This document shows, piece after piece, positions 883 through 41,448 of a DNA stretch of 64,000 nt. The notes under the pieces are model-generated. The model was given only the letters and a program-made list of their open reading frames with translations, ran no database searches and was not told the origin of the DNA. The position numbers were made by a program, and so were the translations under genes. The stretch lies in assembly GCA_050084985.1 (NCBI GenBank), contig JBITNC010000001.1, positions 179,986,001-180,050,000 of the forward strand, given 5' to 3'. The DNA comes from Nageia nagi (lineage: Eukaryota > Plantae > Pinophyta). Positions within the stretch are counted from its first letter, which is position 1. Each line of letters opens with the position of its first letter.

Positions 883-2315
883 TGATACCCCAAGGTTTCT
901 GATGAAAATTTGATGGACACCCCAAACTTGGTTTTTGATGAAAATTTGTCAAATTTTTCATTTTAGGCACCATTTTTCACTCCATTGGATTTGGAAAAAT
1001 ATGGAAAACTGTTTCTAGGAATTTGAGCCACCAAACTTACTCAAAATTGAAAGTTTGCAAGTTTAAATGTGCTAGAAATGCCAATTTTGACCCAATGAGC
1101 ACCTTAGGATTGATTTTTGTTGAATTTTGCACTTACCCCTCCAAGTTAGGTGCCAAAATGCAAGTCTATGGATTTCCAATCACTTGGAAACTTGCGCCTA
1201 GGATTTTAGGGCACTTCCATTGGTCAAAATCAAAAATTTGTAGACCTAAAGTGCCTTAGAACAGGATTTTACATGCAATCAAACCATCTCCCTTGATTTT
1301 CAAGACAAATTTCATTTTTCCCTTGGTAGCTAGGTGCCAAAATACACCCCATTGGATTTGCCTAGCCTTGGAGGGCTCAAAACTTGCTCAAAATCGAAAA
1401 TTTCAAGTCCTAATTGTGTTAGAAATAACCTTATTTCTCCAATGACGCTCTTAGACTTGATTTTCAACACCATTTTGCAATTCCTAGGAGCTATGTGTCA
1501 AAACCCAGGCTTGGATATCACTAAAATCCTCAAACTGTGCTCTTGGGCACACCTTGTGCATTCCGGACCCATATCCACCATTTCCAAGCTTGAACTTGAC
1601 TAAATCCACATTTTTCGTCATTTTCAGGCTTAAACTGTGCAAAAACGATCATTTTCGGCATTTGCGGTCAAAACTGAGCTTAAAGTCTGAAAAAGATCAT
1701 TTTCGGCACTTCAGAGCTCAAACTCTACATTTTCAGCCAAAACCACACTTTCCAAGTATTTTGAGCTCAACTTTACATTTTTTACCATTTTCGAGCTTTC
1801 CGAGATCAAAACATGCAAAAACGCACATTCTTGCCTTACTAACCACTTCCGGCCTCAAAATTGACAACACATTTTCTATCACACTTGCCCTTTTCTAGCA
1901 TTTCGGGCTCAAAATTGACAAAAACACTTATTTTTGTCATTTTAGCCATATTCACAGCTCTAGGACTTAATCTTGACAAAAACGCTCATTTTCGTCACAC
2001 TTGGCACTTTTGAGCTTAAAACTCTGAAAAACAACCCCATCTCTATTGACTGCACTCTAGACCAAAAATCTGTGCTCTAATACTCTCTCTTAGATCTTGG
2101 CTCCTTGGCTCCAAAATTGGTGACTGAAAACTTTGATACTCTTCAAGGTCTTCATCGCAAGATCTCCTTGAATCACTCCCTGATATCATGTTTGCACTCT
2201 TCAGAATGAACTATCCGTCGCCAAAAGCCAATCTCAAGGCAATGCACTTTATTGCCTTTGCAAAAATAGGGTCCCCAAAATCTTGAATTTTGGGGTGTAT
2301 TGTGCGGGCACAACA
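883..2315 (-). mobile_element. 5' fragment of a TGTTG...CAACA giant-LTR-like element, abutting/inserted in the 5' LTR of the Reina-like element
   Basis: Reverse complement from 2315 reads TGTTGTGCCCGCACAATACACCCCAAAATTCAAGATTTTGGGGACCCT, homologous to the starts at 13667, 36176 and 39019. Degenerate internal repeats at ~1560-2030. The left end is uncertain and no TSD was found. Confidence 0.7.
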
Positions 2316-5300
2316 CATCCTAACATGTCATTATTAGTATAGTTGTTTGGTATATCAGTTTGTAATGTAAACCACCATATTTGTTTTGTAATGTGAATTG
2401 TCATTTTGTAATGTTCAAATATTTTGAACCGTCGGCCTTTAAAAACAGTTTAGTTAATTTGAGCTAGGGTTAAGGTAGTAATTCTATAAATGTATAAGTG
2501 GGGAAGAGATGGTATCTTGAAGAAAGTATTTTGTCTTTGAAGTTATAAGAAGGAAGCCCCCTCGAAGTGGCCTACAATTCTCATTTTTATTTCAATAAAG
2601 CTATCTTATTTCCAATTTGAATCGTGTTATTTCATTTGATATGCTCTATTAATTCAAAGCTTTGTTTTCATGCTCCATTTTCGCTAAATTTAATAGTTGT
2701 TTATGCTATTATTTGGAATCAGTTCTTTTAGAATCTTAACAGCTGGTATCATAGCACTTACCAAGGCCATTTTGTTATTCTTCTACACATAGATTCCTGA
2801 GAGTGTCATAGGCTTAAAACTCTGTATTGAGGGTCTTTAAATATCATGGAGCATTTGTCATTTTTGGCAAGCACGCCTACCCATAAAGCAATGTGTGAAG
2901 TGATGTGCATAAAAGTCGGTATATGGAATTGGACTCTGTACGAAAAGGTATATCAGAGAAAACCCTAGGTTGAAACTAAAACTAGACTAGGAAGTCGTTG
3001 GCCATCTATAAATTGTAAGCATCAGTAAGCAATTAGCACCAAGAAGTTACTCATCACAGAAGCCTTCTCCGCAACTTCTTTTTGCTTATCGAAAGTTGAT
3101 AGGAGGAATGTTTAGACGAGCCTACAAAGCAGACACACCTTGACAATAGAACTTGCATTTTACTCGTCTTAGGAGGCATAAGGTACTACTTTCAGTATTA
3201 CAAAGCAGCTCCAAAATGTTAGATAGCTACTAATTCTTGGAGGCCACTACCTTCAAGGATTACAAAGCAATTTCCAGAATTCACAACTTGCAAAAGTAGT
3301 AAAATTTAAGAATAGCCGCTTGAAGATAATTCCCTAAAAAGAGTCTCGAACGCAAAAAAAAATCATTGTTTTGAGACATAGCCCATTGAGACCATCTTGT
3401 CGAGGCATTTGTTTTCATATATAAAACCCTTAAAACTTTTTTGGGAGTCGAAAATTGTCAATTTGAGACCTAGTCCATTGTGACCATCTCATTGAGGTGA
3501 TTGTTTTGACATATAGCATGCATATACTTTTTCAGTCACCTCCAATACCATACGAATGGCTAAAGGAAGAAATCAAACAATCAAGAGGATGCTTACCCAA
3601 TTCAATCTCAAGCATGCTTTAAAAGAAATGGATTCAAGGAATGAAGGCTTAATATGATACTTTGAACCAGAACATGTTGCAAGTACAACAATTGGTGCAA
3701 TCAATTGTAGCAGCACAATGCAGAACACACAAGGTTCGAGTTCTCAACAGTTGATAGGATACATACATCAAATGCATATGGGAGGACAACAAGCAACCAT
3801 TCTTCCAAGGAAAACTAAGTTATATTTTCCTAAGTTTGATGGAGGGGATTCGACCAATTGGATTTATCGAGCAGAATAATATTTTTCATTGAACCAAATT
3901 CTTGAGGCTTAAAAGATGAACATTGCATCCTTTCATCTTGAGCATGATGTCATTTAATGGTATCAATGGTATGAAAAGACTTAATTGGGCAACCTTTACT
4001 CAAGGGGAATTCACAAAAAATTTATTGGTTCGATTTGGTCCAAGTGACTTTGAAAACTTCATGGGAGCTCTCACAAAGTTCCATCAAACATCATTAGAAA
4101 ACAATTATCAGAGTCAAGTTGAGAAGCTTGCAAATCGCATGGAAGGATATGATGAATCCTTTTTCAAAAGTTGCTTCATCAATGGACTGAAAGAATAAAT
4201 TAGGGTGGAAGTAAAGATGTTTAATGCCAACACCATGATGTAGGCCATTGGGTTAGCTAAGCTGGCAAAAGATAAATGCAATGCTCAATGTCAACAAGGA
4301 AAGCAACCTATTGAGAAGCCACAAGTCACTCAAACAGCCACAAAACCTTATCGACCCTTACATGTTAAGCAACTCAATCCTTAGAAAATGAAAGAATGAT
4401 AGGAGAAAGGCCTTTGCTATAATTGTGATGAGAAATATGTACCAAACCATAGATGTACTATACAAAAAGTTGTACTTGTTAAATGTAGATGTTCCTTGTA
4501 ATTTAGTAGAGGAATAAGAGGAGGCGAAGGTGGAAGAAGTGGTAGATGAACTTGATAACACTAATAAAGACACCCCAAAGATTTTTTTCAATGCTCTTGC
4601 AAAGTTTTCTTCCCCACAAACTATGAAGGTCCAAGGGTAGTTCAAGCACAAACTATCATTATCCTCATCGATTTGGGAAGTACACATAATTTCATTGATC
4701 CAAGATTGACAAAACAGCAAATTCTTATATTCACCCTTGTAATAGCTTTGAGGTGATGATTGGTAATGGAAGGAAAATTGTATGTAAAGGGAAATGTCAA
4801 CATACTCATGGGAGACTAGAATTTGAAATTTGATACGTATGGACTTCCATTGGGAGGATGTGATGCTGACATAGGGGCTCAATGGTTGCAAATGTTGGGG
4901 CCAATATTATAGGATTTTGCAACACTATGCATGCAATTCACAATAGAAGGATAGAGATACACTTTAAAAGGATTACAAGCAAGCCCTTTGTAGATAGTAA
5001 GTTCCCACCACATGGAGAATCTTGTTCAAAAAGGAGGCAAGGGGATAAACGCATAGTTATTCTCAATTCAATCAATAAGGGATGGACAAGAAGTGGAGTT
5101 ACAATAATTTTTGGCACGTCATGTAGGAGTATTTGAAGAACCAAAAGGGTTGCTCCTCCATTGCCCTCAAGATAATGCTATACAATTTTTCCCTAGGAGT
5201 CAACCACTAAATATTCGACCCTATCACTACCCCTTCTTGCAAAAAAAATGAATTTTTTTTCAATATTCGACCCTATCAATACCCCATTCTTGTCCAATAT

Positions 5301-8240
5301 TGTTGGTTCATAAGAAGGATGGATCATGGCACCTATGCATAGATTTAAAGCTCTCAACAAAATCAAAGTCAAAATTCCCAATTCCTATCATTGATGAATT
5401 GTTGGATGAACTTCATGGAGCTAAGTATTTTTCAAAATTGGATTTACGATTTGGATATTATCAAATCAGAATTCAAGAAGACATCCCTACAAGAGCTTTT
5501 CGCACTCATGAGGGCCATTATGAATTTTTGGTCATGCCATTTGACCTTAAAAATGATCATTCAACTTTCCAAAGTTTGATGAATTTAGGTATTTCACTCT
5601 TATCTCAAAAATTTATTTTGGTTTTCTTTGATGATATTTTGGGTTATAGCAAGACTTGGGAGGATCATTTGGCTTAGTTGGACAAGACATTGCAAATCTT
5701 GGGTGAAAATCAATTGTATGCCAAATGCTCAAAGTGCTCTTTTGGGCAGAATGAGATTGAGTAACTCAAACATATCATTTTTGAAGAAGGGGTTAAAGTG
5801 GACCCATATAAAATTGAAGATATGATGAATTGAACGATCCCAAAATCATTGAAAAGTTTGCATGATTTCTAGGATTGATCGGGTATTATTGTAAGTTTGT
5901 AAAAGATTATGGTAAAATAGCAACCCCATTGACAACTTTACTCAAAAAGAATGTTTTTGTCTAGTCATCGAATGTCGAAGATGCTTTTAATAGGTTCAAA
6001 GAAGCTATGTGCTCCACCCCAGTATTAGCCATCCTAGACTTCTCTAAGACCTTCGTGATTGAAAGCGATGCTTCAGAATAGAAATTTGTGTAGTTTTCAT
6101 GCAAGAAGGAAGACCCTTGTCCTTCACCAAAAAGGCACTTTTAGGAAGGAATTTGGCATTGTCAACATATAAAAAGAAGATGTTAGCAATCATTCATGCC
6201 ATCCAACATTGGCAGTCATACCTCATTGGTGGACATTTCATTATTTGCATATATCATCATAGTTTGAAGTATTTTGTGGAAAAATGTATCTCTACTCCCT
6301 AGCAATAAAAGTGGGTCACTAAACTATTGGGGCATGACTATGAGATTGTGTATTGCAAAGGGAAGGAAAATATAGTAGTTGATGCTTTATCATGAAAATT
6401 TGAAGAACTGACAACATTGCAAGCAATCTCTTTACCTATTCCCCAATGGTTAGACCAAATAAAACAGGAAAAGCACAATGACAACACAACTCGAACATTG
6501 ATTCAGTAGCTCCAAAGTGACCCTTTTGGGAAACCCAACATCACTTGAAGCAATGGAGTACTTTGGTATAAGGGATGCATTGTATTGCCCTCTAAATCTT
6601 CCAACCAAGTTGAGATACTTCATGAGTTACATGCAATGCCCACAACAGGACATTGGTTTTCTAAACACATACAAAAGGGTGGCTCAATCGTTTTATTGGG
6701 ATGGAATGAAACCAAACATCAAGTCCTTTGTTGCAAAATGTGGTGTTTTTCAACAACAAAAGAGTGAAACAATGGGTACTCTGAAACTACTTCAGCCTGT
6801 TCCCATACACAAGCGCACTTGGAATTCATTTATGGTCTTCCAAAGTCTTGTGGATCCATTGTCGAAGTATGCACATTTTTGGTTGTTCTTAGCTAACCTC
6901 TATAAGGTTGTTAATGTGGCTCAACTTTTCCTTGATAACATTTTCAAGCTCCATGGTTTGTCATCGACTATAGTAAATGATCGAGATCCTACTTTCACCA
7001 ATCATTTTTGGCAAAAAAATTTCAAGCTTCAAGGAAGTCAGCTCAACATGAGTTTTGCATATCACCTCCAAACTAATGGATAGACAAAGATTGCTAATAA
7101 ATGTTTGGAGACTTATTTGCATGGTTTTGCTTCTGCACAACTTGTTCATTTGGTTAAATGGCTTCCCCTAGAAGAGTGGTGGTACAATACTTCCTATCAT
7201 ACTACAATTAAAATGATCCCCTAGGAAGTTTTATATGGCCAAGCCCCACCAACAGTGACAACCTATATTCCTGGAAACACCAATGTTCAAGCAGTGGATT
7301 TTGAGTTGACCAATAGGTGGGGTATTCTTCACCTTCTTAAGGAGAACTTGTAGACTACACAGCAACAGATGAAAAAACAAGTTGATCAACAATGGTTGAA
7401 AATAAATTTCAAGTGGGAGATATGGTATTCTTGCAACTTCAACCTTATCGTTAGATTTCTCTCAAGCTAAAAGGACCCCAAAAGTTAGCTCCAAAATTTT
7501 ATGGACCTTACAAGATTTAACGCATTGGACCAACTGCATAGAAGTTGGAGTTACAGGAGTCTTTGAAAATTAATCCAATGTTTCATGTATCTTGCCTCAA
7601 GAAGGTCATCAATTCACAGGTGAAGGTACAAAGTTACCAATATAGTTACCTGATTTCACAAAGGATGGCTCTTTAGTTGTGGAATCTAAAGCAATCTTGG
7701 AATGACGTACCTATCAACTTTGCAATCGCACCATTATTGAAGTTCTAGTTCAGTGGCATGGATTCACCCCTAAAGATGTTACTTGGGAAGTACTTTATCA
7801 GCTTCAATAAGAATTTCAATTTCAACTTTGAGGATAAAGCTTTTTCCAGGAGGGGTGGCATGTGAGGATCCCACATCCTAACATTTCATTATTAGTAATA
7901 GTATAGTTGTTTGGTATATCGTCTTGTAATGTGAACCGCCATGTTTGTTTTGTAATGTATACCGCCATTTTGTAGCGCTCAAATATTTTGAACCGTCGGT
8001 CTTTGTAAGTAGTTGGATAAATTTGAGCTAGGGTTAGAGTAGTAATTCTATAAATGTGTAAGAGGGGAAGAGATTATATCTCGAAGAAAGTATTTTGTCT
8101 TTGAAGATGTGAGGAAGCCCCCTCGAAGCAACCTACAATTCTCATTGTTATTTCATTAAAGCTATGTTTTTTGTAATCTGAATCGTGTTATTTCATTTGA
8201 TATTCTTTGTTTATGCTGTTATTTTGAATATTCTTTGTTT
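2316..8240 (+). mobile_element. Decayed Ty3/gypsy chromovirus (Reina-like) LTR retrotransposon
   Basis: 5' LTR 2316-2741 (first bases displaced). PBS TGGTATCATAGC at 2744-2755 (tRNA-iMet type). PPT AGGAGGGGTGGCA at 7848-7860. 3' LTR 7861-~8240 is clearly homologous to the 5' LTR. Confidence 0.93.
3556..7850 (+). pseudogene. gag-pol pseudogene (gag, Zn knuckle, protease, RT, RNase H, integrase, chromodomain)
   Basis: GLCYNCDEKYVPNHRC (~4410); LIDLGSTHNFID (~4665); KKDGSW..FSKLDLRFGYYQIR..FFDDIL (5300-5677); RNase H (6099-6302); integrase KLHGLSSTIVNDRDPTF (6517-7083); EVLVQWHGFTPKDVTWE chromodomain (~7740). Many stops and frameshifts. Confidence 0.93.
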
Positions 8241-12999: not shown

Positions 13000-13967
13000 A
13001 CCACTCCCAGTATTCAAGGCTGAGAAGAAGCGAGTGATGCAGGTTTTTGATGTCATCCTAGGAAGTCTTTGTTGGAGTTGACAGTGGATTGATCTCGTCA
13101 TATCTCTATGGTCACCCGGGCGCTTACTATTTGAGACTCCTTGGGGCTGGAAGAAGGAAGGGATAAGTCTGAATCTAGTGCCTATCTTAAGTCTATTATT
13201 GAGTTTTTTTCTCAGATAAAAAGAGCAATGGACCTCTAGTGTTCCTAGTTTATCCCAGATTTTAGTGTATGGGTGTCTTTAAATAAGCAATAATGTTTGT
13301 CATGTATCTCATAGTAGATGGGGCAAGTGAAGATAAAATGCTCTTCAAATTCCACTTCGAGATTGCAAAATTTATAAATACACTAATCTTTGGGAAGGTG
13401 GTGATTTGTCTCAATATGTAGTTGGTGTGAACAAGCTCGTAACTGGGCTAGAGGGAACTTGAGGCTATGCGACATTTGCATAAAGTTATCTTTTGGGTTA
13501 GTGCTCAATCTATTTTCTATTTGGAGTTAGAAGCAAAAAAAATGAAGTAGCTTCAGTGATAGAGGCTCCTTTGGTTCAATCTATGTAATCTTTCGACATG
13601 TTGAGTATATCTCGTCTCTATACTCCTTATTAATACTAAAATATGCAGCATTAGTTGGCAGCTTAGTGTTGTGACTGAAACACAACATGCCCCCAAATCT
13701 TGCGATTTTGGGGACCCTCAACACTTCATGTAAATACTTTGCAATGTTGTAGTCTTATCCAACTCAAGTGATGTCGCAAGACCCAGATTCAAGGACAAGC
13801 CCCTCACGTTCAAGCCTCATCCTTCGTCCAAAGTCAATCATACCAAGCTAAAAGTGTGAAATTCTTCCAAAAATGGCTAAGTCCGGAAACTGAACGTCAA
13901 CCTTAGGTGAGCTAGGAGAGTCTAGGACGAGCCATGATAGAATCAAGCCAAACTGGGTCACTCCTAG

Positions 13968-14941
13968 GGTTGGCGCATGATTTCAAAAGACAAAATCTTG
14001 TCTTTTTGAAACATGCAACTAGACCTGGGAGCCGTCCAAACTAAAGTTGAGGCTTGGAAAAGCAATCTGGGCCACTTTCAAGCCCAACGCATGCCTCCAG
14101 GAGAGAAAATCTTTACTTTTCGAAGCATGCGCCAAGGACAAGCAACAAACTGGACCAGGATGAAGCTCGAAAAGACAAGGTAGGGATACTTCAAGGTTGG
14201 CGCATGGTCTCAAAAGACAAAATCTTGTCTTTTTGAATCGTGCGACCAAACTGGGAGAAGCAACTGGGCGAGTTCAAGGATTGAGAAGTGAATCCCAGGC
14301 ACCCAAGAGGCTGGCGCAAGCCTCAAAAAGACAAGATTTTGTCTTTTTGAACCATGCAACTAGCCCAAAAAGGCTTGCAATTTGTTCAACCAAGAACAAT
14401 GACTAAAGCATGAAGCTTGAAATCTCGGGACCAAGTCCAACACACCCAGGAGGGCTGGCGCATGATTCCAGAAGATAAGTTTGTGACATTTTGAGCCATG
14501 CGCCAAGCCCAAGAAGCCTCTAGGATTGACCAAAGGGGGGGAATTTGGCAAAGGCAAGGGAAAAAAAGCATCAAAGAACGAAAAATTGGCCATCTGGAGG
14601 TTGGCGCATGATTAAAAAAGACAAAATCTTGTCTTTTTTAACCACGCAACCAAGATGGACGGGCAGGAAAGGCTTATGCATGCCTTAAAAAGTCAAAAAC
14701 ATGATTTTTGGAATCATGCGCCAAGCTTGAGGAGTGCCCAAGTTGAGATGAAAGATCAAATTCGACAAGTCCAAGCACCAGAAAGACCAAAAATCAGGAA
14801 AGATCAGGTCGAAGGGCGAGTTCACAATCGAGACAAGCAAGCAAGTGAACAAAAAGGGCCAACGTTTGAAGCATGCTCAACCCCAAGGCTAGCGCATGAT
14901 CCAAAAAGACACAGTCATGTCTTTTTTGGCCATGTGCCAAG
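13968..14941. repeat. Array of 8 spaced ~53-bp palindromic units (GGYTGGCGCATG-N-AAAAGACAAAATCTTGTCTTTTT-N-CATGCG)
   Basis: Units start at ~13968, 14081, 14195, 14309, 14452, 14599, 14671 and 14887, separated by dissimilar spacers of ~20-160 bp. Confidence 0.9.
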
Positions 14942-15093
14942 CCAGAATGAGCTCTAAAACCCCAAGGTCCGGTCACAGGCAACTTGACATGAATTTTGGC
15001 GTAGGCACACATCTCGAGATCGTCCAAACGGATGGCTAAGATCAAGTTTGCTCATTAACCTAATTGACTAGGGTTAGATGCAAGCCAGTTTGG

Positions 15094-15102
15094 CTATAAA
15101 TA
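15094..15102 (+). promoter_or_regulatory. TATA box upstream of the orphan ORF
   Basis: CTATAAATA, 230 nt before the ATG at 15324. Copy C has TATAAAA at 40724-40730 before its ATG at 40865. Confidence 0.5.
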
Positions 15103-15323
15103 CAAGCCTGGGGACTTCATTTTTTCAAATCCAAAACTCGCTCCTTTTCCACTTTTGTGCCAAAGTAGCAGGAAACTGCAGATTTTTGAGCTTGAATCCC
15201 ATCATAATCTATCCTAGGGCTTGCGCAAGCATTTGGAAGGCAAGCCAATCCAATGTGGGGTGCCTTCACCACTTGGAAACCCTTGCATCACCCTTGAGAG
15301 ACTTCGTTGCAAACCTGAACACC

Positions 15324-18300
15324 ATGACTACTCCCAAGGGCAATGTGGCTTCAAACTTTGCTAGGGACCTCGAGCAGTTGACACAAGATTGCGTTATCAC
15401 TATCTATGAAAGACAAGACTCCCTTCCCCAAGGGGCCAAATTCTCGAGGAACGTTCTTGCTACCATCAGAGATACAGAATGGCAAGACATTGATTGAGAG
15501 ATAAAATACGGGAGTTACCCATCAGTGACCTCAAACAAGACATTGTCTTCTTCTTTGGACTCTCCACATGCACATGTGTACCCTTCACAGCTCCGTTTCT
15601 TGAATTGTGCATGGAGGTCGACCATCACTGGCAAAAGGGGGGGAGAGTCCTCCGTGATATCAAAGGAGACATCATCATGGACTTCAGCCCCAACGCCATC
15701 AAAACGGTGTTCCAGTGGACTCAAGAAGGAAATTTCAAGTACAACGAGGCACAATCACTGGCATGCTATCAAGAGACCAACAGGGCCGTTGTTGCAATCA
15801 AGAATTGGATGTTGGATGACCATCATGGACTCAAGGGTAACACTCTCATAAATGCTCCTCGTTCCAATTTCTATCCTTCAATTAAGTTGATGATCTTGAT
15901 GTTGTCCAAGGTTCTCGAGAAGGAAGATGCTTCTAAATTCAGGAAAGAGTTCTTTGGCTTCATCATTGAAATTGCTAGAGGGAAAAGGATTAGGTGGAGC
16001 AAGGTGTTGAGTGACACAATAGCTGATCAGTTATCATCCATAGGCACCACTCGCAAATTCTACCTCAATTCATACCTAGTGTACATGTTGCTTCACGACG
16101 AGTACAGGGCCATGGCGAAAGGAGAATCAACATTGATCGAGAAAGGGACCTATGCCATTTGGAGATGCTACCCTAAATGGAAGCTTGAGAGGAGATGGGA
16201 TAGTTTCACCATGAAGAACAATGGATGGGAGTATGAGATCTACAAGGAGCTCAAAGGAGAAATCACAGTGGCAAGGATCTCTAACTCAGCCCAAGATGCA
16301 TTGAAGAAGCATGGGGACTTCTTCCTCCATCACCAACACTATTCCTATATCAAAATCCATGGGTCAGCCGTGAAGTCGTATCAATTGCCAAGGTTCATGA
16401 GCAACAAATTGCTTCTTATGGAGATGAGGCAATTGGCCTATCTACATGAATAGGTACGGAAGAAGAAATCGACTTCTTCAAATTTGTCGATTATAGTAAG
16501 TGAATACCAGTGTAAATCTTGGGCGGACGTTCACACTATGAAGGAAGAGTTAGCGAGATGTAACTTCAAGAAGATGCCTACCGCCGACCATTATGACCTT
16601 AACCACAGGATGCACCAGTTCTTCATGAAGGAAAGGAAGAAAGCATATAAGTACAAACCACGTGGAGAAAAGGAACCTTTCCGAAATGGGAGTAACGAGG
16701 TAGAGATGAGAAAGATTCGCGAAAAGATGCATAAAGATGCCCATGATCAGCAACACCTTGTCGAGGCCACTATCAACAAGAGATTATCACAACAGGAGGG
16801 AAGAAGACCTCAAGAGTCCACATCCAGGGTCACCCAGTTTCCTCCCACAGTTGAAGCACCAGTTGGACAGTATGCGTCAATGCGTGGCAAGAACCCAATA
16901 GAGTAGAAGTAAGGGATACCATTGATGAGCACGAAGTGAGAGAGCTAGAACATGTGGCCACGGACAAGATGGTGAAGTGTGTCAGGAATAGAGAGAAGGA
17001 TTCAACCCCACCACCAAGATCACCTAGAGAAGTAATTGGGAGTCCATCACTAGTCATTCCGCTATCTAGGTCTGCATCCACTAGTCCCGCATATGAACCT
17101 GACAACCATGAGGAAGAAGAGGAAGTCAGTGAGACAAAAGAAGAACAAGGAGTAAGTGCATATTAGCACGATGAAATCCCAGATACACGGCAAGAAGACG
17201 AATCCTTGGAGATAGTGAAGGTAGTCCAGAACCCCACAGCTTCCAAACCATCCACAGAGAAGGTTAAGGGATGGGCCTCAGAGACAGTACAGAGAAGAGC
17301 CTAGTTGAAGAGAACTTCACAATCATGGACAACAAAAACCTCCGAGGAGCTTGGTGAAGAAGAGGCAAGACCCTCGAAAAGGGCCAGGAAAAGTACCACC
17401 ACCATTCAGGAAGTAGTTGTTAAGACTCATTAGCCATCACCTACAGATGAATGGAGAGTTAATATGGAGGAGTGTCTGGATGTGTTCAACATGGATGTTG
17501 AGGAGGAGTTTGGAGTGAGAGAAGAGAATGATCAGATTAGAGAAAGCTCCACTCGCCCGAGTAAGACCTAGACTTATGTGCATCTAGCCAAGAACACAAT
17601 TCACATCAAGACTATAATCGCAGAGAAGGAGAATTCCCAACGACTTGAAGATCTCAGGCAGGTGAACCAAATCATCAATACAGGTCCTATTGGTTTGGCT
17701 GGTCGGAAACATGCAATCATCTCCACCCTTGAGGCGATTACCAAAGATGGGATGATGAAAGAGAAAGAGATTAAAAGCCTCAAGAAGAAGTTAGTTGCAC
17801 AAAAGTAATTGACTAGAGAATTAGAGTTAGCTAAGGTGCCCACAGAGGAGCTTCGAAAGATAAAATCACTTGAAGAGGGCATGATTGCAGTGAAACAGGA
17901 AAAATTGATGAGGTCTTAGTAGTAGTACAGTAGTTCATTGGTGCACTACAAAGGGTAGCATTTGAAGAGCAGAAGCTGAAGGATATTGTGGTGGAGAGAG
18001 CCAGCCTTCTCAGGATTTTGGATTCCCGAAGGCCTATGATCATGAAGTTGGAGATGACACGAGACCGAAGGCTCGAAGATGTGAAGTTTTGTGAAGAGTA
18101 CTGGTTCTACTTGGGTGTCGTCAACCAGATAGCCACACATTTCCAGGAGGTGCAGAAGCAGGTCGAAAAGCTCAATGACAAGGCTAACACTAGCCTCAAG
18201 CAGATGGATTTCCAGGTCAAGTTCATTGATGATGATGCCACCATTTGAGATAAAGACCTGGTAGTGGCGAAAGTGAGGCACTTTCTTCACAGTCTAATCA

Positions 18301-18527
18301 TGACTGATGATGTCAACACCTACCAAATTGGGAGTCACTTGAAGCACCTACCTAAAGCTCGCACTTGGAAGGATGATATGCAGAGGATGGTGGACAAGGT
18401 TGGACGCCGCATCACTAGGAACGGGCCAAAGCTATCATAGATGCTGCACGGGTTAGAACTCACAGCAAAGTTCTTGGATGAAGATTTTGAAAGACGCATT
18501 GAGGTGTTGGGCCCACATGTGCCTTAG
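15324..18527 (+). pseudogene. Disrupted ~1060-codon orphan gene of element A
   Basis: Same-strand ORF pieces 15324-15497, 15494-16453, 16484-16906, 16936-17166, 17578-17808, 17988-18248 and a tail ending ...ERRIEVLGPHVP* chain through single stops and frameshifts. Collinear homology with 40865-44446. Confidence 0.85.
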
Positions 18528-20621
18528 TCGCAATTTTCATAGTTTTATGTTATTTTCAAGAAAATGCATTTATTTTATGAAACATTTTGATTATATTTGA
18601 TATTTAATTCCTATGTTTGAGATGGATGAGGATTTGCTCCCACAAACTTGGAAGACATTTAGTAATGCCATGTGGCAAGCTTTGATTGAACCATTTGTTA
18701 CTTCTTGGATTTTGAAATTAGGGTTAGGGAAACATTTAGGGTTGCCACAAAACTATTTATAGCCCACTAGGGCTCATTTGTAGGGGATTAGATATTTTTG
18801 CACTTGTGAGAGACTTAAATTTTACTTCCAATTCAGCAAGTTTGCTCCATTTACGAATGTGATATACTCCAAGTAATTGAATTGTAAATGCTCTCATTTG
18901 AAACAATGAATGTTAATGGATGTTACTTTCTTATGTTGTCTTGAATACTTGGTGCATTTTGTAAATCCGGTTTAAGGTGGACAAAAGAGTGCTTGAACAT
19001 TCTTAGAAGTACTTCAAGTAACGCATGGTTATGTAATGATTCATAGTTTGCACTTAGGACTTGTACACTTTATGATGGCTCCCATATGTCACTTAGTCTA
19101 GGAACTTCACTCCTTTGATTAAGGTCTACCCACCTCTCACCCCTTTTACCTCCATCGCCTTAGCTTCAAGCTCCTCTTGCTAGGTCATTTGTGTCGTTGC
19201 CCAACAAGTTGGATTCAGAGTGCGTGGAACCTATGACAAGCCCGTGAGAGTTGAGTCTTAAAACCTATACCAATCGGTGAGAACATTGAGCTCATGTGCT
19301 GAATTCATATATCACTGTCTTCTCAACCTTTTTTCTTTTATTTTTATCCTTTTTTGTCGGGCTTTTGCAACCTCCCTTTTCTTTTCCTTTTGAAAAACAA
19401 CCATTCCTGGGGACAAGGACCCTTCGAGTCCTTGGTTAATGAATACTATTTGAGTTGGAGATAGCTTCAAACATCTCTACCAATCCCCTGAGTCACCTCT
19501 TGCACACTACAACACTAAACCTTTGAGGTAACCAGTCCTCATAGCGGGTAGGTGTCACGCCCTACCACTCAAGTGTCGGTGTCTTTCTATGGGCCTTGCA
19601 ATTTAAATTGCCCATTAGCAAGGTAGGAAACAAAAAGCCCCCAACACTTAGTAGGAAGGAGTCTCCATTATAAGTATTTCAATTTCGAAGGCTTTTATGG
19701 CCTTTGTTTCTTCATTATAAGTATTTCATGCATGATTTGAGTTATTCTTTCATTTCAAATTTGGTTTTAGTCACTAATCTATAAGGACAAGCTTGGTCAT
19801 CATCTAAGTTGATCGTAACCCCTGCAAAATCTAGGACGAGTCAATCCCCCCAAAACCATTGAACTTCCAGGTGCTCTTTAGAAAGAATTCGATGGTGAGT
19901 TTCTAAGGGTTAGAACTCTGAGATGCACAACATATCACATTCCTTGTTTCAAATTGATATATGTTAGATTTACAATTGTGATGCTTGTTTGTTAGATCTT
20001 CATGGGCCTAGTTTGTTCATTAATGTTATATTACACTCCTTTATTGATATTTCTTCTAGGCAAATTCTATATTAATCTTGTAGGCAAATTATTGGGTTTT
20101 ATTATTGTTATAATTCATTTTTTTCATCTACATTATTGTGTAAGGAAACAAATGTCAAATTATTATGTTGTATATGGAAGATGTAATCTTATGGGATAAT
20201 GTATCACTATCACCAACATGTGGCAAATATATCAGGTATCCCTTCATGGTTTAAGGGGCCCATAGGTTCTATTTCATGGGGCTTTAACATCCATGGTATT
20301 ATTAGTTGTTAGACATAAATATAAAAGGGAGATGTCATTAATCATGTCTTCAAACATTGTACACGAAAATTTGGAAGGTTGCCCCTTCATAGTGGCTATG
20401 CATATTATGGTATTTCTCTATCTTAAGGGTTCTCAAATATCTTATGTGCAATTCCTTTTGTTCTTCAATTATTTTTGCACATTGTGGTGACATTTTGTGG
20501 AGTATTATTCTTATTTTCTAGCATTTGCAAGTTGAATCATAACAAAGGAAGGCAACTTTTTTCCCCAAAACTACAAATACAACCTTACCCAATATAGATG
20601 CATTATGTATAATATTCTTAC

Positions 20622-27977: not shown

Positions 27978-30900
27978 TGATGTTGTACAGTTAATTGAAT
28001 TCACTTACAAAATTAAGTATGCAAGTGTGGAAATATTGATTACATGCATAGAATAGTGATAATCAATCAAGCAAACAAAATAACACAAGATACTTATATT
28101 GGTTCCTCCAATTGTAGAAGTACATCCAATTTAACAGTTCCTCTTCTTCATTATGGGGATTTTACATGGATTTATAGATACAAGAATATGGAAAAACATG
28201 CCTCATACAGCAACAATCCTTCCTGACTATGCAACTCATCCAAATCTCCTTTAATCAAATGATATTAACTCTTCAACATGAAAATTTTTACAACTTGTTC
28301 AACAACCCTTCAACAATGGATTCTACAAGTAGATATACAGCCTTGAAGCGTCGCACAACTTCTCAAACCAACAAAACATCTCCCTAAGCAATTATAGCAA
28401 CTGAAACAACCTTGACCGTTGAGTTTCCCCACTCAAGCTATCCGAAGGTACGATGTCCACACCCTGAACTAGGCTTCTATGGCATCCACATTGTGCTATT
28501 TGTGGATCCATCGCACCAAATCTCTAGAGTATGTCTGATTTCGAACATAGAAACATATGGTGCATACATATTTGTCTATCGAACATCAGACTTCTTAATT
28601 GATCAATTCAAATCACCCCACCCCCATGGGAAGGCATTTTGTCTCACAAATGCATAAGTATGGATAAGATGAGGAAATAGTTCCCCCACCTTAGTAGGTA
28701 ATTGTCCTTTCAACCCCACCAACCAAATTTTTTGTTCATCTCTCTTTGTAGTATGAACCTTCTTCTATAGGATTGAATCTTCCCCAAGGTCATTCATGGT
28801 ATTTGGAGCTAAGTCATCAACTGATGGAAAAAATTGTCTTGTCTCTTGTTCTTCCTCAATCAGAATAAATGGCTCAAACAACTTCCAAGTTCTCCACATT
28901 CGCAATTGAGCAGATATTCATGTAAGAATGTAGATCCAATCTAAAAGTACTCACTTACTTGCTCTACGATACAAAATGGTCCATATCTGATAGACTTAAG
29001 CTTTTTGGCTGGTCCTTGTAGCCTCTTCTTACTGAGATTCCACCAAACCTGATCTCCTATTTGGAATTTGTGGTCAACCCTATGTTTGTCATGCCTCAAC
29101 TTATATTTAGATTGGCTAACTTGGAGTTGCTTTTGAACTTTCAAATGAACTTGCGTTATCTTGTCAATGAATTGTTCAGCTTGCTTTTCTTCATGCACAA
29201 CTAAAACATCATCATCCTTTTTTGCTCAAACACAATCAAAAGGTGATAGCGGTAAAAATCCATAACAATTTTCAAATGGAGATTTATTTGAAGAGAAATG
29301 AATTGCTCTATTGTATGAATGCTAAACAAACACAAGATGCTCTTCCCAAGCCTTCGAATGCTTGCCACAATAATCCCTTAACAATTAAACAATTGTCCTA
29401 TTGACCACTTCAGTTTTCCAATTCATTTGAGGATGAAAAGCAATGCTTCTTTTCAGTCTAGTATCCATCTTTTCTCAAAAACAAGTCCAAAACTTACCTA
29501 AGAATCTAGAATCTCTATCCGTAATAATAGAACTAGGTAATCCAAAATGACCCACACAAGAGAAAAGAAGAGTTCAACAACTTCTTGACCTATTATAGTC
29601 TTCTTACATGGAATTAGCACACGCATCTTGTTAAATATATCAACAATCACAAATAAATAATCATGCCCTTTCTTGGACATAGGTAATGGCCCTACAAAAT
29701 CCATTGAAATACTTTCTAAAAGACAATGAGGAACTAGAAGTGGTTGATACAAACCCAATTTCCTATTGCTAGATTTGCTAGTGTAACACATTACACACCC
29801 CCTTACATACTTAACAACTTGCTCTTGCATCTTTGTCCAATACACATACCTTTGAAAATTTGCAATTGTCTTACCAACTCCAAAATGTCCAGCAAATTTT
29901 GAAGTATGAGTCTCTCTGATCAACCTAAGTCTTTCTACTTCAAGAATACACAATAGATTATATTTATAGAGAAGGTCATCTTTAATGTGAAATTCATCCA
30001 TCCCTTCACAACTTGGTATAGATGACTGTTTCAGCTTTTGGTATACATCCTACATCCTGCATATATGCCTCTAGAAATGCTTCAAAAACAAATGGATAAA
30101 ACTTCATGACAATCAGAGATCATTTTCCACTCTTGGAACAACGTAGGTGTTGTAGTTTCAAACTCAAAAGGCATTAGCGTCATGGTTGCTACTATTGGTG
30201 GTCTGGCAAGCATGTCGTCAATCTTATTGGTGTTGCCTTTCTTATATTTGATGATAAGATGGAATTATTGCAGAAACCCCATCCATCTGAAATGCCTTTC
30301 TTGTTGCAACTTGGATTGAGTTTGTAAACATTGTAATTGTTGATGATCAGTATGAATTATTTTCTATTTTCCCAATAATGCTTCCACTTCTTCACCACAT
30401 GAAACAATGCATACAATTCCTTATCATATGTAGGATAGTTCAAAACTGCCCCACTAAACTTCTCGAAATGGTAGCATATAGGTCTTCCTTGCATCAATAT
30501 TGCCCCCATGGCATACTCACTAGCATCAGTATCTACCTTAAATAGTTGTTGTAGATTGGGTAGTGCCAAAACATGTGCATTACTGATCTTTTAATTCACT
30601 AGGTCAAAAGAAGTTTGTTGTTTCTTTTACCACACAAAACCTTGCTTCATTCTTCCTGTAATGTCAAACAATGGTAAAACAATATTGGAAAAATCAACAA
30701 TAAACTTTCTCAAGTATTGAAAAACTGCTAGAAAACTCTTGGTTTCAATCACATTATATGGTCTTGGCCAATCAACAATAACTCTAACCTTCTCAAGATA
30801 TATCCTATGTTGTCCTCCACCAATGACATGTCCTAGGTACACCAAAGATGTTTTACCAAACTCACGTTTACTTGCTTTCAACAACAAATGTTTTTTATTT

Positions 30901-33300
30901 TTGCAAAGTTTGTAACACCTTCCTAAGATGTACTAAATGTTCATCCCAATTACAACTACAGATCAGAATATCATCAAAATATAAAGGAACAAAAGAATCA
31001 AGATATGGCCTCAGGACATCATTCATCACCCTCATGAAGGTGGAAAGTGCATTACACAACCCAAAAGGTAAAACTAACCATTCACATAGACCTTGTCTAG
31101 TCTTGAAGGCAATCTTCCAAATGTCCTCCTCTTTAATTCTCACTTGATGATACCCACTTCTCAAGTCCAAATTGGTAAAATACTTTGCTCCTTGCAATTG
31201 ATCCAATAGATCATTTATCTAAGGCAATGGATAACGATTCTTGATGGTTATTTTATTCAAAGATCTGTAGTCAATACACATTCTCCACGATCCATCTTTC
31301 TTATGAACTAGAATAACAGGTGAACCACATGAAGAAGTATTGGGTTGGATCATGCCTTTATCCACCAGCTCTTGTACATGCCTCTTAATCTCCTCTTGTT
31401 CCAAAACCGATTGCCTAGACAATCCTATGTCAGGAAGAGGAATCAGGTAACAACTAGATTTCATGTTGAATGTCCTGCATAGGTGGCAATCCCTTTGGCT
31501 CAAAAAACACAATCTAAAACTCGTACACCAATTTCTATTGTTGATCTTCTTGCCTCAACAGCACCTGCGTTGTATTTTCAATCTAGAAGGATGTTAGCGT
31601 CGTGCACTTGAGAGAATCATCTTCTACAGCTCTTACCATGAGTAGCACGAATTTCAAATTGATGTTAATCAACCTTTTTACTTGACTGGATGTCACCAAA
31701 GACATTCTCTTTGCAGTCTGAAAAGCGTGAACAATATAGAACTTTCCATCTTTAATCAGTCTATATTGATTCTTTCTTTGATAATAAATGCCATCTTTGT
31801 CCTACAAATAGGTAAATAGTGAATATCAAGAGGTACCACATCCAAAACAGCTTCATTCGCAAAATTAGAGGAAATAGTGGAATTCAACTTGCATTGCTTT
31901 GTTACTTGTAACTTGGCATCACTGTGAACCCAACCTAATGGGTATGGTTGAGGATGCTTCTCTGTCTTCAACCCCAACTTTTGTACCAAACTTTAAGCAA
32001 TCGAATTTGCTTAAGAACCAAGATCTAAAATAGAATTACTAATTGTCCCCTTGATTTGGATCTTGACATGGAATGGTGATGTCCTCTTCTCCTCAACATG
32101 TTTGCATTTCCAACTTCATGGACTATTGTACATTTAAGGTTTTCATCAGAACCTCCACTATCCTCACTCTTAGTGACCATTGCATTCTTTTTATTTGGAT
32201 TCTTCTTCTTCTTGTATGGGTACAACTCAGGATGAAGCTTCCAACACTTCTCATCTACATGTCCATCTTTGTCACAATGTGAACAATGTCATGTATCACC
32301 TTCCTTCTTTGAAATATTTGTGGTTTTCTTCTCTTGTTGCTTCCCTTTAGCTTTCTCTTGAGATTTACTGCCTTCTTGGTTCCCCTTATTATTTGTATTC
32401 TTCTTGGAGTTCTCAAAATGTTGTTTATGTCTCCCATCTTCTTCCAAATATTGAGCTTGCACACAAACTTAATCAAAATTAGTAGGATTAAACAACATAA
32501 TCAACTTCTGCAAATGAGTATACAAACCTCCAATGTACATCAAAATTTGAGGATCCTTAAGAGAAACCCCAAGTAAATTTGTTTGCCTCCTAAATTCAAT
32601 GGTGTATTCTTGGATTGATTGTCCTTTTTGTTGGCGAAAAAATTGCCATTTCATGAGTCGCTTATTATGATGACCCAAAGGATAGAACTGAACTATCAAC
32701 AAATTCTTGAATTCGTCCCAAGAAGAGATAGATGGTTCATCCTCATGTTTGAGGGATTATACATGACTCTCCCATCAAACTAATGCATGACCTCTCATTT
32801 TCAATCTAGCAAATGAAATTTTATGAGCATCATTTTCAACACATTGAAACTAAAAGTATACCTCAAGTTGCTTCAACCAATTGTTGAGCTCCTTTGCATC
32901 TACCTCGCCTCCAAACGTAGGGATCTCCAACTTGGCCTCTACTTTGAATGGCAATGATGTAGTGGCATGAGAAGGTCCAACATCTTCAAATGGTCTTCTA
33001 TCATACTTAGGTGTCCTTGGATCCTCCCTAGTTTGTCTTCCTTGAAGTAACTCCATTATTCTAGCCATATTGTTCTCCATTGCAAGAAATCTCCTCTCGA
33101 ATTCAAAACTCAAGTTAGAATCAATTTGTGGATGCTTTATTCAACTTTCTTCTTGTTCTTCCATTGAATTGGTTCTTATATGCCTTCTTCCAATCTCAAG
33201 ATCAAAAGGAAACAACTTAGCTCTTTGAGACCTTCTACCTTGCATAAACAACTTTGTTTTGTGGAGGTTTATCTTTTGATGTGATGTCTTCCCATGCAAC
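27978..33300 (-). mobile_element. Decayed Ty3/gypsy element (CRM-like gag/protease), 5' LTR missing
   Basis: gag KVEAKLEIPTFGGEVDAKELNNWLKQLE; Zn knuckle at ~32240-32290; VQKLGLKTEKHPQPYPLGW; [33 protein letters not shown]; RNase [14 protein letters not shown]; integrase HTSKFAGHFG..ISMDFV. PPT at 28616-28630, 3' LTR ~27978-28615. Confidence 0.9.
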
Positions 33301-35374: not shown

Positions 35375-36480
35375 TTTGACTTCCTTGAGCTGGGTTTCCC
35401 ACCTCCACTCCACTCTAGAGTGTTATTTTTAATAGCAGAACTTGTATATCTTCCCTATTTACCCACATTTGTTGTTTTCTAGAATTTTTAATTGTTCTTG
35501 TTCTGGAATGTTCATTTTCCTTATTTCCTTTTGTATTCTTCCCTCTTTTCCTACTATTTCTTTTTGTTAGTTGTCTTTCATGCTCTTCAGCAACTACATC
35601 TATCTCTACATTTGCTTCGTTCTCAGCCTCTTCTTCTGCAGTCTCCTCTTCTTCTTCTGGCTCCTCTTCTTTCTCTTCATGCTCATTTCCATCTATAGAC
35701 TTTTCCGGTGTTTTAGTAGACTCTACATTGATATCCCTCTCTTCGAAGAATTTGAGTTTCCTAAACTTCATATGTTGTTTCTTCCTCATTTTCCTCTAGA
35801 AATTCCTTTGTAATGTTTCCCAAAATTTCATATCAGTTTCTTTGAGCTGATGTTTGGGGTATTTCTGGAAATTTCTTTGGATTTTGTATTTTTTCAGGCA
35901 CTTTCCCCAGTAGTTTGTCTTGTGCTTCCTTCATTAATTGATCTGGTCCCTTTAAGGTCCTTCCTGCGGTATTTCTTTTTCTTTTTCTTTTCCTTTTCTT
36001 ATTTATTGATCTTGGTTTTCAATCCTTCTACATGTCCATCTCCATTCTATATTTTGCCTTTGTCTTCTGTCATTTGCTGGTTTAGTTGGACAGTCTTTTC
36101 CAATATGGCCAAAGATTTTGCATTCAGTACAAGCCATTGGCTTTAAGTTGTGGGAAAGTTTTTGAATATGCTCCCTATTCTGACTGAAACACAACATCCC
36201 CTAAAATCTTGCAATTTTGGGGACCCTCAACGCATCATGTATATGCTTCGTTTTGTCGTCGTCAATCCCACCCAAGTTGCGTCTCAAAGACATAGATTCA
36301 TGGACAACCTATTATAGTTCAAGCCACTTCCTTCGTCTAGGGTTAGTCATGTCAAGATAGGAATTTCAAAATCTCTAAAAAAATGGATAAGTCTGGGAAA
36401 GGTAAAAGTCGATCTTAGGTGAGAACTAGGGAGTCTAGGAAGAGTCGGAGCTTGATCAAAGCAAACTGGGGATCTCCAAG

Positions 36481-37448
36481 GGCTGGCGCATGCTTCAAAA
36501 AGACAATCTTGTCTTTTTGAACCATGCGACTGGGCCTAGGGGTCATCCAGACAGAAGGGAAGGCTCAAGAACGGAATTTGGGCACTTGCAAGCCCAGCAC
36601 ATGCCTCCAGAAGACAAAATCTTGTCTTTCCTGGGCATGCGCCAAACACAGGGAGCGAAATGAAGCCAAAGTAAGCATGGAAAACCCAAGGCAAAGGCAC
36701 TACAAGGCTAGCGCATGGTTTAAAAAGACAAAATCTTGTCTTTTTGAACCATGCGACTTGGCCAGGAGGACAAGATGAGCAAGTTCGGAGGTCGGGAAAT
36801 GATCATGAGTCATCCAGGAGGCTGGCACATGCTTCAAAAAGACAAAATCTTGTCTTTTTTAACTATGCACCAAGCCTAGAAAGGCTGCCAGTCTGAGCAA
36901 AGTGGAAAATTTGACAAGTCCCCGGACTCAGGAAACTCAAGACCAACTCAAGCATGCCCAAGGGGTTGGCGCATGGTCTAAAAAGACAAATTCTTGTCTT
37001 TTTGACACATGTGCCAAGCCTAGGAAGCCTTAGGATTTGAAAAAAGTAAAAATTTGGCTAAGGCATGGGCACTTGAAGATCAAACTCTGGAAAATAGGCC
37101 AACTGGAGGCTAGCGCATGCTTCAAAAAAAAAAATCTTATCTTTTTGAACCATGCGACCAAGCTAGATGGACAAGCAAGGCTAGCGCATGCCTTAAAAAG
37201 TCACAAACTTGACTTTTGGAAGCATGCACCAAGCCCACAGGTTGCCCAAGTTGAAATAAAACATCAAAATTGATAAGTACAGCTGACCAGAAGACCCAAA
37301 ATCAAGAAAAATTAGGTTACTGGGTGAGTTAGGTGAACAAGGCAAGCAAGCATGAAGGCAGGAGACCCAAGGTTGGAAGCATACACACCCTTAGGGCTGG
37401 CGCATGGTTCAAAAAGTCACTTTTTTGTCTTTTTTTCCATGCACCAAG
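36481..37448. repeat. Array of 8 palindromic units, positionally equivalent to 13968-14941
   Basis: Units at ~36481, 36591, 36706, 36820, 36964, 37108, 37179 and 37394. Confidence 0.9.
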
Positions 37449-37534
37449 CTAGGTTGAGCATTAAAACCCAAACGTTTGAGCACAAGCGGCTTTATAGGAG
37501 GTTCTGGGCTGGCACACATCTCGAGGTCAGCCAG

Positions 37535-37694
37535 GTGGGAGAAGGATATGATGAGGGTCACCGACAAGGTAGAGCGTAGCATGGTGAAGAATGGGCCGAA
37601 GCTATCAAAGATGCTACATGGATTGGAGCTCACAGCCCAATTCTTGGACTACTTTGAACGGCGTGTAGAAGCGTTGGAGCCACCATCTGCCTAG
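37535..37694 (+). pseudogene. C-terminal remnant of the orphan gene in copy B
   Basis: WEKDMMRVTDKVERSMVKNGPKLSKMLHGLELTAQFLDYFERRVEALEP matches WKDDMQRMVDKVGRRITRNGPKLS*MLHGLELTAKFLDEDFERRIEVLGP at 18367-18527. Confidence 0.85.
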
Positions 37695-40616: not shown

Positions 40617-40984
40617 GGGTTACAAGGCAAAGTTGGTTAAGTTTGAGATGCCAAGAGTTGGGAAGAGAAGAAGACAAGTGGCAAGCATGCACCTTGCCAT
40701 ACATTCACCCTCAATGCATCTCATATAAAAGGAAAGCAGTTTTCATTTAGTGTGTTGGACGTCCTGCAACCCAAACCTACACATTTGGTTCTTTCCTGCT
40801 ACACCCTTCACAGCATCCAAGCTTGTCCTTAGGTCCTTCCAGGGGCATTTTCAAATAATCCTGCATGGCTTCCACTATTAGACCTCCTCCATCAAGAGCC
40901 AGGAAAATTCAAGGACAATTGTTTGAGAGACATGTGACTAAAAACCAGATGGCCCGGCTTTCGAAAGAAAGTTTGATTGAATTT

Positions 40985-40987
<3 letters not shown>

Positions 40988-41031
<44 letters not shown>

Positions 41032-41035
41032 GAGA
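40988..41035. repeat. (GA)n microsatellite
   Basis: Direct inspection. Confidence 0.95.
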
Positions 41036-41360
41036 AACCAGAGCTCCCTGAAGCCAAATTTAAAGGGAGATACATCTTTGTTGGTGATATAAACTGGGAA
41101 AACTTGGACCCCATCCAGACTTTAGCCTCTACTGCCTCCATCAATAAGGAGTACATATCAAAAGAGCTTATCCACACTTGTGGCTTGTTCAATGCCACTA
41201 TGATGCCTTTTGCAGTACCTTTTCCTGATTTGTGCTATGAGGTAGCCAGGAGATGTGCATACGACAAGAGAGTCCTACAGGACACAGAGGGAAATGTAAT
41301 TATGGACTTCTCCCCTGTTGGAATTGAAGCAGCCTTTGGTTGGAAAAGGTATGGGGACGA

Positions 41361-41448
41361 CTACACACTAGCATATTCTGAGGAGTTCCATGATTCCATA
41401 GCCTCTACACACTAGCATATTCTGAGGAGTTCCATGATTCCATAGCCT
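41361..41448. repeat. Perfect 44-bp tandem duplication
   Basis: CTACACACTAGCATATTCTGAGGAGTTCCATGATTCCATAGCCT twice. Confidence 0.95.

Follow-up and report, generated by a model that had tools for sequence, protein, structure and literature searches.

A window of 64,000 nucleotides from the conifer Nageia nagi (GenBank assembly GCA_050084985.1, contig JBITNC010000001.1, positions 179,986,001 to 180,050,000 of the forward strand) contains a row of eight long, regularly spaced palindromes, here called array A, upstream of a decayed open reading frame (ORF). The array forms the non-coding 5' module of a eukaryotic mobile element that is ~6 kb long and present in many copies. Sequence, structural modelling and analogy lead us to propose, tentatively and short of calling it probable, that the palindromes are operators for the element's own protein of ~1000 aa, which would be VANC/PMD-like.

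The palindromic array and the element that carries it

Array A (13973-14937) consists of eight imperfect palindromes, each with a core of 46 nt bounded by the arms CGCATG and CATGCG. The unit consensus is GCGCATG-nTTCAAAAAGACAA-AATC-TTGTCTTTTTGAAn-CATGCGC, in which an A-rich half (TTCAAAAAGACAA) is followed by the 4-nt centre AATC and the complementary T-rich half. The dyad symmetry reaches outward past the core (GGCTGG.. / ..CCAAGCC) to ~57 nt in all. We counted 12 instances of GCATG-N30-42-CATGC in the window, where 0.62 would be expected; none of 100 shuffles reached this count. Array B contains five of them, array A four and array C two, and the last lies outside the arrays. Mean column identity over 25 units is 77%, and the best-kept columns of the 25 A-type units are the CATG of both arms, 36 bp apart.

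13973-14018, 14087-14132, 14200-14245, 14314-14359, 14458-14503, 14604-14649, 14676-14721 and 14892-14937, unstranded: unit cores of array A
36486-37444, unstranded: array B, with all eight units of A in unchanged order (direct reading and alignment with A)
13667-19646, + strand: element copy A, 5980 bp, TGTTG...CAACA, with array, promoter, decayed ORF and tail (terminus motif searches, homology borders)
13662-13666 and 19647-19651, unstranded: target-site duplication (TSD) of copy A, CTTAG (direct reading)
36176-38802, + strand: element copy B, 2627 bp, TATTC..CAACA, gene-less, with the TSD CTCCC at 36171-36175 and 38803-38807
39019-45824, + strand: element copy C, 6806 bp, TATTG..CAACA, of a diverged lineage, with the TSD GGTAC at 39014-39018 and 45825-45829

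The eight units also recur in the same order in an independent metagenome contig (L001). Start-to-start spacings are 114, 113, 114, 144, 146, 72 and 216 bp in array A, 111, 114, 114, 144, 144, 71 and 216 bp in array B, and 114, 112, 113, 145, 144, 71 and 211 bp in L001. The spacers of one array, aligned locally with each other, give z values mostly below 3 and at most 6; compared across A, B and L001, each spacer aligns with its orthologue. Tandem Repeats Finder, run on the window, did not report array A, because the spacers within the array are barely alike. ORFs of 80-113 aa cross the array on both strands and in several frames; we rejected them as coding sequence and attribute them to composition.

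These data bear out an earlier sequence-only reading of the stretch, which had described eight arm-and-core inverted repeats upstream of a gene, with differing spacers and a period of ~114 bp (114, 113 and 114 among the seven spacings), recurring in order in copy B. Its gene context holds for array A, which precedes the ORF, and fails for copy B, which is gene-less and whose neighbouring gene belongs to copy C. Its description of the array as CRISPR-looking captures a surface likeness, namely the repeat-spacer look and the partly palindromic repeats. We rejected a CRISPR array: the context is a eukaryotic transposon, the repeats are 77% alike, the spacers (26-170 bp within arrays) are orthologous across A, B and L001 and inherited in order, and there are no cas genes.

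Homology of copy A to copy B and to the loci L001-L004 begins and stops at the termini of A. In four public sequencing runs, 2,693 to 8,048 contigs per run fall on copy A at a likeness of at least 80%, which marks the element as highly repeated, and read depth in these runs is highest over the array and falls to ~0 beyond 19.83 kb. The 5' part comprises a conserved leader of ~300 bp with small terminal hairpins, followed by the ~970-bp array. A further leader of ~220 bp lies between the first TATA box (P1) and the ORF, and the tail after the ORF measures ~1.3 kb.

15094-15102, + strand: TATA box P1 (GGCTATAAATA), putative promoter ~155 bp past the last unit, conserved in A, L001 and L003
15324-18248, + strand: intronless ORF of ~970-1000 aa, broken in copy A by a frameshift near 15494, an in-frame stop at 16451-16453 and further frame changes
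18753-18766, + strand: second, putative TATA-like box CTATTTATAGCCCA, invariant and preceded by TTAGGG-like motifs
19546-19566, + strand: 3'-subterminal stem-loop with a 7-bp stem and a GTAAC-type loop, ~80-100 nt before the element end

The second TATA-like box belongs to an invariant tail block (18680-18790 in A, 37850-37950 in B) found in A, B, L003 and L004, in which the TTAGGG-like motifs ATTAGGGTTAGGG and TAGGGTTGC precede CTATTTATAGCCCA. A peak of read depth (18612-18855) lies over the region of this box. The block may be a second promoter, one that copy B has retained.

The 3' stem-loop has counterparts in B (region 38703-38724), C (45755-45776), L003 (~20-45) and L004 (~3745-3770). 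Among these five copies, both partners have changed in six of the seven stem pairs and still pair; the stem has been replaced between lineages (GGGTAGG/CCCTACC, GGGAGGG/TCCCTTC and GGAAACAA/TTGTTTCC) and the loop conserved. Such covariation suggests a single-stranded, perhaps RNA, stage of the 3' end. In L003 (positions 1-1020), the element's 3' end with 18 nt of flank occurs twice, inverted, ~800 bp apart. Upstream of the gene in the same locus, an inverted copy of the tail has reduced the array to two degenerate units, by rearrangement or through an assembly fold-back.

Copy B corresponds to copy A minus 15022-18365, since only the flanking blocks of A match it: 13669-15021 aligns with 36178-37528 (72%) and 18366-19648 with 37536-38804 (74%). 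B is without the ORF and the P1 TATA box and keeps the leader, the tail and all eight units, which form the best hairpins. Because B keeps the units without P1 and gene, the array has persisted in a form that offers it no gene to drive in cis. The deletion joint (37528-37540, compared with 15015-15035 and 18360-18385) is located in a short direct repeat of imperfect sequence (GGAWGG.T..GAT). It is bridged by three among the 32 contig pieces listed, with at least 31 nt on each side, at ~90% identity and in two runs, and ~40 loose contig ends at the joint run on as the A form. Since other contigs ~90% alike carry the same joint, several diverged deleted copies exist, and the gene-less form has likely been propagated. 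Copies B and C, alike in orientation and each flanked by a TSD of its own, stand 216 bp apart (38803-39018), which may be due to chance or to a local insertion preference.

In copy C, the architecture of A (array, then TATA box, then paralogous ORF) recurs in DNA that aligns with that of A at the termini only. The interior of the C units is wholly unlike that of A, yet again self-complementary; unit length is as in A, and the units are spaced by ~95-105 bp and multiples thereof. The C counterpart of the P1 TATA box is CATATAAAAGG, and the encoded proteins of C and A are ~30-36% identical. A perfect 44-bp tandem duplication (41361-41448) shifts the frame of the C ORF and looks recent in an otherwise old copy.

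39203-40613, unstranded: array C, nine units with arms TCGCATG...CGTGCGA and interior ..GTGTATGC-TTTT-GCACCC..
40724-40730: TATA box of C, downstream of array C
40981-44185, + strand: ORF of C, broken in part by the 44-bp tandem duplication

Constraint on the units: dyad sites or hairpins

The units are more constrained than the DNA between them. In the alignment of A, B and L001, 254 of 368 unit columns (69%) are invariant, against 285 of 600 spacer columns (47.5%; Fisher p=5.4e-11), with the leader at 56%. Copies A and B are 80.7% identical in the units and 64.3% in the spacers. Between A and L001 the units have diverged by 0.24, half as much as the synonymous sites of the adjacent gene (pS 0.49). 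The observed/expected ratio of CpG in the units is 0.98 (A), 0.73 (B) and 0.63 (C) against 0.32 for the window, and in the spacers 0.32 (A), 0.15 (B) and 0.49 (C); the CpG of the units sits wholly in the arms. The earlier impressions that the units are better conserved than the spacers and that CpG-bearing arms persist in CpG-poor DNA thus withstood measurement. Two outcomes had been named in advance as contrary to function, units no more conserved than spacers and spacers that are parts of one decayed tandem repeat; neither was found, because the units are clearly more conserved and the spacers are at most faint relics of a tandem repeat.

A functionless, decaying mini-satellite carried in the transposon, with units kept alike by gene conversion, is for these reasons very improbable. 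The spacing does suggest an origin by tandem duplication of a ~100-114-bp unit, some spacers are faintly alike (z up to 6), and contigs with variant unit numbers occur. Decay alone, however, fits poorly with units, order and spacings that are kept in three independent insertions 72-75% identical overall, with a CpG retention limited to the arms and a unit divergence half that expected from pS, or with an architecture that persists in lineage C, where the non-coding DNA is otherwise unalignable.

A second alternative is that the units act as hairpins of RNA or single strands in read-through, antisense or LTR-type transcripts (LTR, long terminal repeat) and give rise to small RNAs or structural signals, as has been proposed for Sireviruses. 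Each of the 13 units that we folded is capable of a single long hairpin, well below shuffles in energy (z -2.6 to -5.9); the replaced interior of lineage C is still self-complementary; and the palindrome regions of Sireviruses are described as hairpin-prone hotspots of small interfering RNA (PMC4728375). We nevertheless consider hairpin function improbable. The two strands of 24 units fold with equal stability (+ strand -16.9, - strand -17.9 kcal/mol, p=0.19), and G-U pairs are enriched on neither. The paired fraction of 25 A-type units (81.5%) is at the level of column shuffles (80.7+-0.7; 84 of 500 as high), measures of covariation reveal no compensatory change within the A, B and L001 units beyond such shuffles, and the C-type units covary marginally (41-59 of 500 shuffles as high). 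In contrast, the genuine stem-loop at the element's 3' end does covary. The array also lies upstream of a TATA box, and across the whole window Rfam at gathering threshold gave no match and a tRNA scan none.

Because pairing is no better than in column shuffles, the palindromy is better described as two conserved half-sites than as the product of compensatory, RNA-type evolution. Equal strands, the lack of covariation, conserved CATG cores and the position upstream of a TATA box together favour double-stranded DNA dyad sites, as a dimeric protein would recognize. Between the two functions that the sequence-only reading had offered, operators for a dimeric DNA-binding protein or RNA hairpins, the evidence thus leans to the operators.

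The encoded protein and the operator model

Comparison of copies gives pN/pS values of 0.22-0.39 for the ORF, indicative of purifying selection, and L003 and L004 contain longer open stretches than A. There are 10 close homologues, and a search of 1.84 billion representatives gave 125 clusters at E<=1e-3; the distant homologues include annotated hypothetical proteins of Taxus chinensis. On these sequence grounds, we regard the ORF as a real gene family. Pfam returned nothing relevant for the ORFs of A, C and the loci, for 16 long homologues, for a 686-aa Taxus protein or for 51 family members. A sub-threshold match to DUF7405 in three of the 51 members, including P0018 (best E 1.6e-4, 21 bits against a cut-off of 27), may reflect a remote link. 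One homologue carries an Alg9-type glycosyltransferase as a fusion partner, probably because of a faulty gene model. Two queries of the ESM Atlas yielded no usable match, a search for longer homologues found none (weak evidence), and a scan of viral contigs with the protein and the 3'-end motif was likewise negative.

An AlphaFold2 model of the residues encoded by 15497-16450, built from a 51-sequence alignment, has a predicted local distance difference test score (pLDDT) of 77.1 and a predicted template modelling score of 0.68, with pLDDT >90 over residues ~40-200; a 6-sequence alignment gave a pLDDT of 35. Among 48,161 chains of the PDB, VIA-align found one match at Z>=5, a weak one, to 9lnk_A, "VANC21 in complex with its target DNA" (Z 6.0, root-mean-square deviation 5.0 Å, 210 residues aligned, 9% identity). 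It is the only match that spans the main domain (residues 5-255), lower-ranking ones being confined to a small C-terminal alpha/beta part. The match gains weight because no protein other than VANC21 is known to bind motifs arrayed within the transposon that encodes it. The N-terminal domain is thus predicted, weakly, to resemble DNA-bound VANC21.

VANC21 is reported to bind YAGTATTAY motifs arranged in dense arrays in the non-coding DNA of VANDAL21, with loss of methylation as the result, and related VANCs to have different targets that arise as tandem repeats (Hosaka et al. 2017, PMC5735166). The VANC fold is described as common to the PMD protein MAIN, with self-association predicted to occur via a coiled-coil (PMC13547354). 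Our element resembles VANDAL21 in combining an accessory protein of a transposable element (TE) with candidate target motifs, of predicted binding, arrayed in the element's own non-coding DNA, and in that these candidate targets are tandem-repeated and differ between related TE lineages; VANC21 is also the best, if weak, structural match of the modelled protein.

Under the operator model, the protein would bind the CATG-bearing arms as a dimer and would keep the array and the adjacent promoter or promoters unmethylated and active, whether by anti-silencing or by activation, and would do so in cis as well as in trans. Copies without the gene would profit from the protein in trans, and the interior of the unit would co-diverge with the protein between lineages. 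The CpG retention at the units is consistent, by analogy, with a local loss of methylation.

Several observations weigh against this model. By the calibration of the search tool, the Z of 6.0 is below the typical best Z of models that have no true match (7-8, and higher for helical ones) and taken alone lacks significance, and the match itself comes at 9% identity and a deviation of 5 Å. Foldseek found nothing in the PDB and BFVD at E<=0.001, a second structural look at the PDB gave no Z>=5 and did not return VANC21, and the PDB searched by sequence with two family profiles gave nothing meaningful. The 51 members have no Pfam match to DUF1985, the Pfam name for the VANC family, or to PMD at E<=10. 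The motifs of VANC21 are 9 bp long and run in one orientation, whereas the units here are palindromes of 46-57 bp placed 72-216 bp apart. VANC is reported as dicot-specific (PMC13547354), whereas the present family has homologues in Taxus. Lineages with proteins only ~30-36% identical have the arms in common, which would fit a conserved host factor as well, and all copies seen are decayed.

VANDAL elements are of Mutator type, with long terminal inverted repeats and ~9-bp TSDs; the TG..CA termini and 5-bp TSDs found here, together with the lack of sequence or Pfam similarity to VANC (DUF1985) or PMD, place the element outside that group. The analogy to VANC that had been drawn from the sequence therefore gains an independent, weak structural match to 9lnk_A and loses any kinship of Pfam family or of element. 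En/Spm (CACTA) elements provide another comparison: they carry subterminal repeats of ~12 bp at both ends, bound by TNPA, with CACTA termini and a 3-bp TSD. They share with our element repeated, partly inverted motifs for a non-catalytic protein of the element (here predicted) that are kept in deletion derivatives; in contrast, neither CACTA termini nor a 3-bp TSD was found here, and our array is on the 5' side only.

The class of the element and its implications

All three complete copies (A, B and C) have LTR-type ends, scored as TG..CA termini with perfect 5-bp TSDs. Such ends and duplications are, by their sequence, of the kind that retroviral-type integrases produce, and in layout the element is reminiscent of a U3-R-U5 LTR. 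No polypurine tract (PPT), primer-binding site (PBS) or shared interior adjoins any of four starts (A, B, C and L001) or five ends (A, B, C, L003 and L004). Terminal direct repeats within copies were not found: alignments of head with tail are no better than shuffles, and we rejected short internal LTRs on the same scores. A Pfam search of nine flanking ORFs revealed no gag-pol domains. These negative results tell against an ordinary LTR, although complete elements may lie elsewhere in the genome. A solo giant LTR is the class to which we lean, with a confidence that stays just under even; a self-contained LTR-less unit is a serious but more doubtful candidate, and other possibilities share the rest.

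The solo-LTR class brings with it a different reading of the array. The copies would be solo LTRs of a giant retrotransposon, the array a U3 enhancer of dyad boxes for a host factor that drives the TATA promoter or promoters, as in the RM boxes of Sireviruses, and the ORF an accessory gene within the LTR. Sirevirus (Ty1/copia) LTRs are reported to contain ~7-9 palindromic RM boxes, which share a conserved CpG core and precede a TATA box that is conserved too; a polyC signal for the integrase is described close to where the LTR ends (Bousios et al. 2010, 2016; PMC2829016, PMC4728375). The parallels are close: here too eight or nine dyad palindromes keep a CpG core across families while the rest varies, and stand shortly upstream of a conserved TATA box (~155 bp) in a candidate LTR with TG..CA ends. 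Both systems also have hairpin-prone sequence and, towards the 3' end, a stretch rich in C. RM boxes, by contrast, are 11-17 nt long with a CGG-CCG core (PMC2829016) and closely packed, whereas the units here measure 46-57 nt, are regularly spaced and carry CGCATG/CATGCG instead of that core. Sireviruses also differ in that our element shows no paired LTRs, PBS, PPT or gag-pol and contains a 1000-aa ORF.

A precedent for a gene in an LTR is mouse mammary tumour virus, an animal retrovirus with the sag ORF in its U3. If the copies are LTRs, they would resemble it as coding LTRs with an internal promoter of their own; the protein here is unrelated, and the virus has no palindrome array.

Termini, TSDs, a run of C at the 3' terminus, the pair of conserved TATA boxes, the RNA stage suggested by the covarying stem-loop and arms conserved across A and C, as expected of a host factor, all suit this enhancer reading, as does a further LTR in the window (49330-50456) that bears arrayed short palindromes. 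We judge the enhancer reading, the main rival of the operator model, unlikely but well worth keeping in view. At that neighbouring element the true LTR-PBS junction is plainly readable, unlike at the array-bearing copies, where no start or end abuts a PPT, a PBS or a shared interior; the loose contig ends upstream, in four runs, have heterogeneous flanks and no purine tract. Conifers are reported to have ~1 solo LTR per 4-7.5 complete elements (PMC5751070). Three solo LTRs out of three copies are unlikely because conifer solos are 4-7.5 times rarer than complete elements (p ~0.0002-0.002 under this ratio, with the reservation that families differ). Form B is without the P1 TATA box. Plant LTRs of 6-6.8 kb with a selected 1000-aa ORF are undocumented in the literature searched, and searches on coding LTRs, on palindromic LTR repeats of gymnosperms and on the VANC21 structure turned up no account of this element family.

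The neighbouring element is one of several in the window. Its LTRs and leader carry arrayed short palindromes centred on AGATCT with a period of 20-30 bp, a second instance of palindromes in arrays in the window, and the remainder of the window is decayed Ty3/gypsy material.

49330-55157: LTR retrotransposon with 1.13-kb LTRs 88% alike, PBS TGGTATCAGAG at 50459 and internal ORFs without Pfam match
2314-8214: decayed Ty3/gypsy element with a reverse transcriptase fragment at 5252-5677 and matches to the integrase zinc-binding domain at 6502-7083
2314-2653 and 7872-8214: 340-bp LTRs of this element
29498-31308, - strand: decayed Ty3/gypsy element with an integrase fragment

A more far-reaching proposal joins the operator model to the LTR-less class. 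The element would represent a gymnosperm kind not described before, with integrase-type ends (TG..CA, 5-bp TSDs) and without its own reverse transcriptase or integrase, in which a DNA-binding protein of VANC/PMD fold and long palindromic operators would form a cassette for anti-silencing or activation whose origin lay outside both the Mutator elements and the dicots; gene-less derivatives would keep the operators and use the protein in trans. Taken as a whole, this combination is unlikely.

To our knowledge, VANC in the VANDALs of Arabidopsis is the only TE-encoded, sequence-specific anti-silencing system known in detail. If a VANC fold and its own arrayed targets do occur together in a high-copy element of a conifer giga-genome, the strategy would be either older than thought or convergent. 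It would also open a way to study how repeats remain active where most of the genome is transposons, and the units would constitute a new, long dyad module of DNA recognition. If instead a host factor binds the units, the array would be an unusually clean, regularly spaced enhancer in which to study the palindromic boxes of TE promoters. In either case, an element with integrase-type ends and no LTRs, PBS or PPT poses a question of class in itself.

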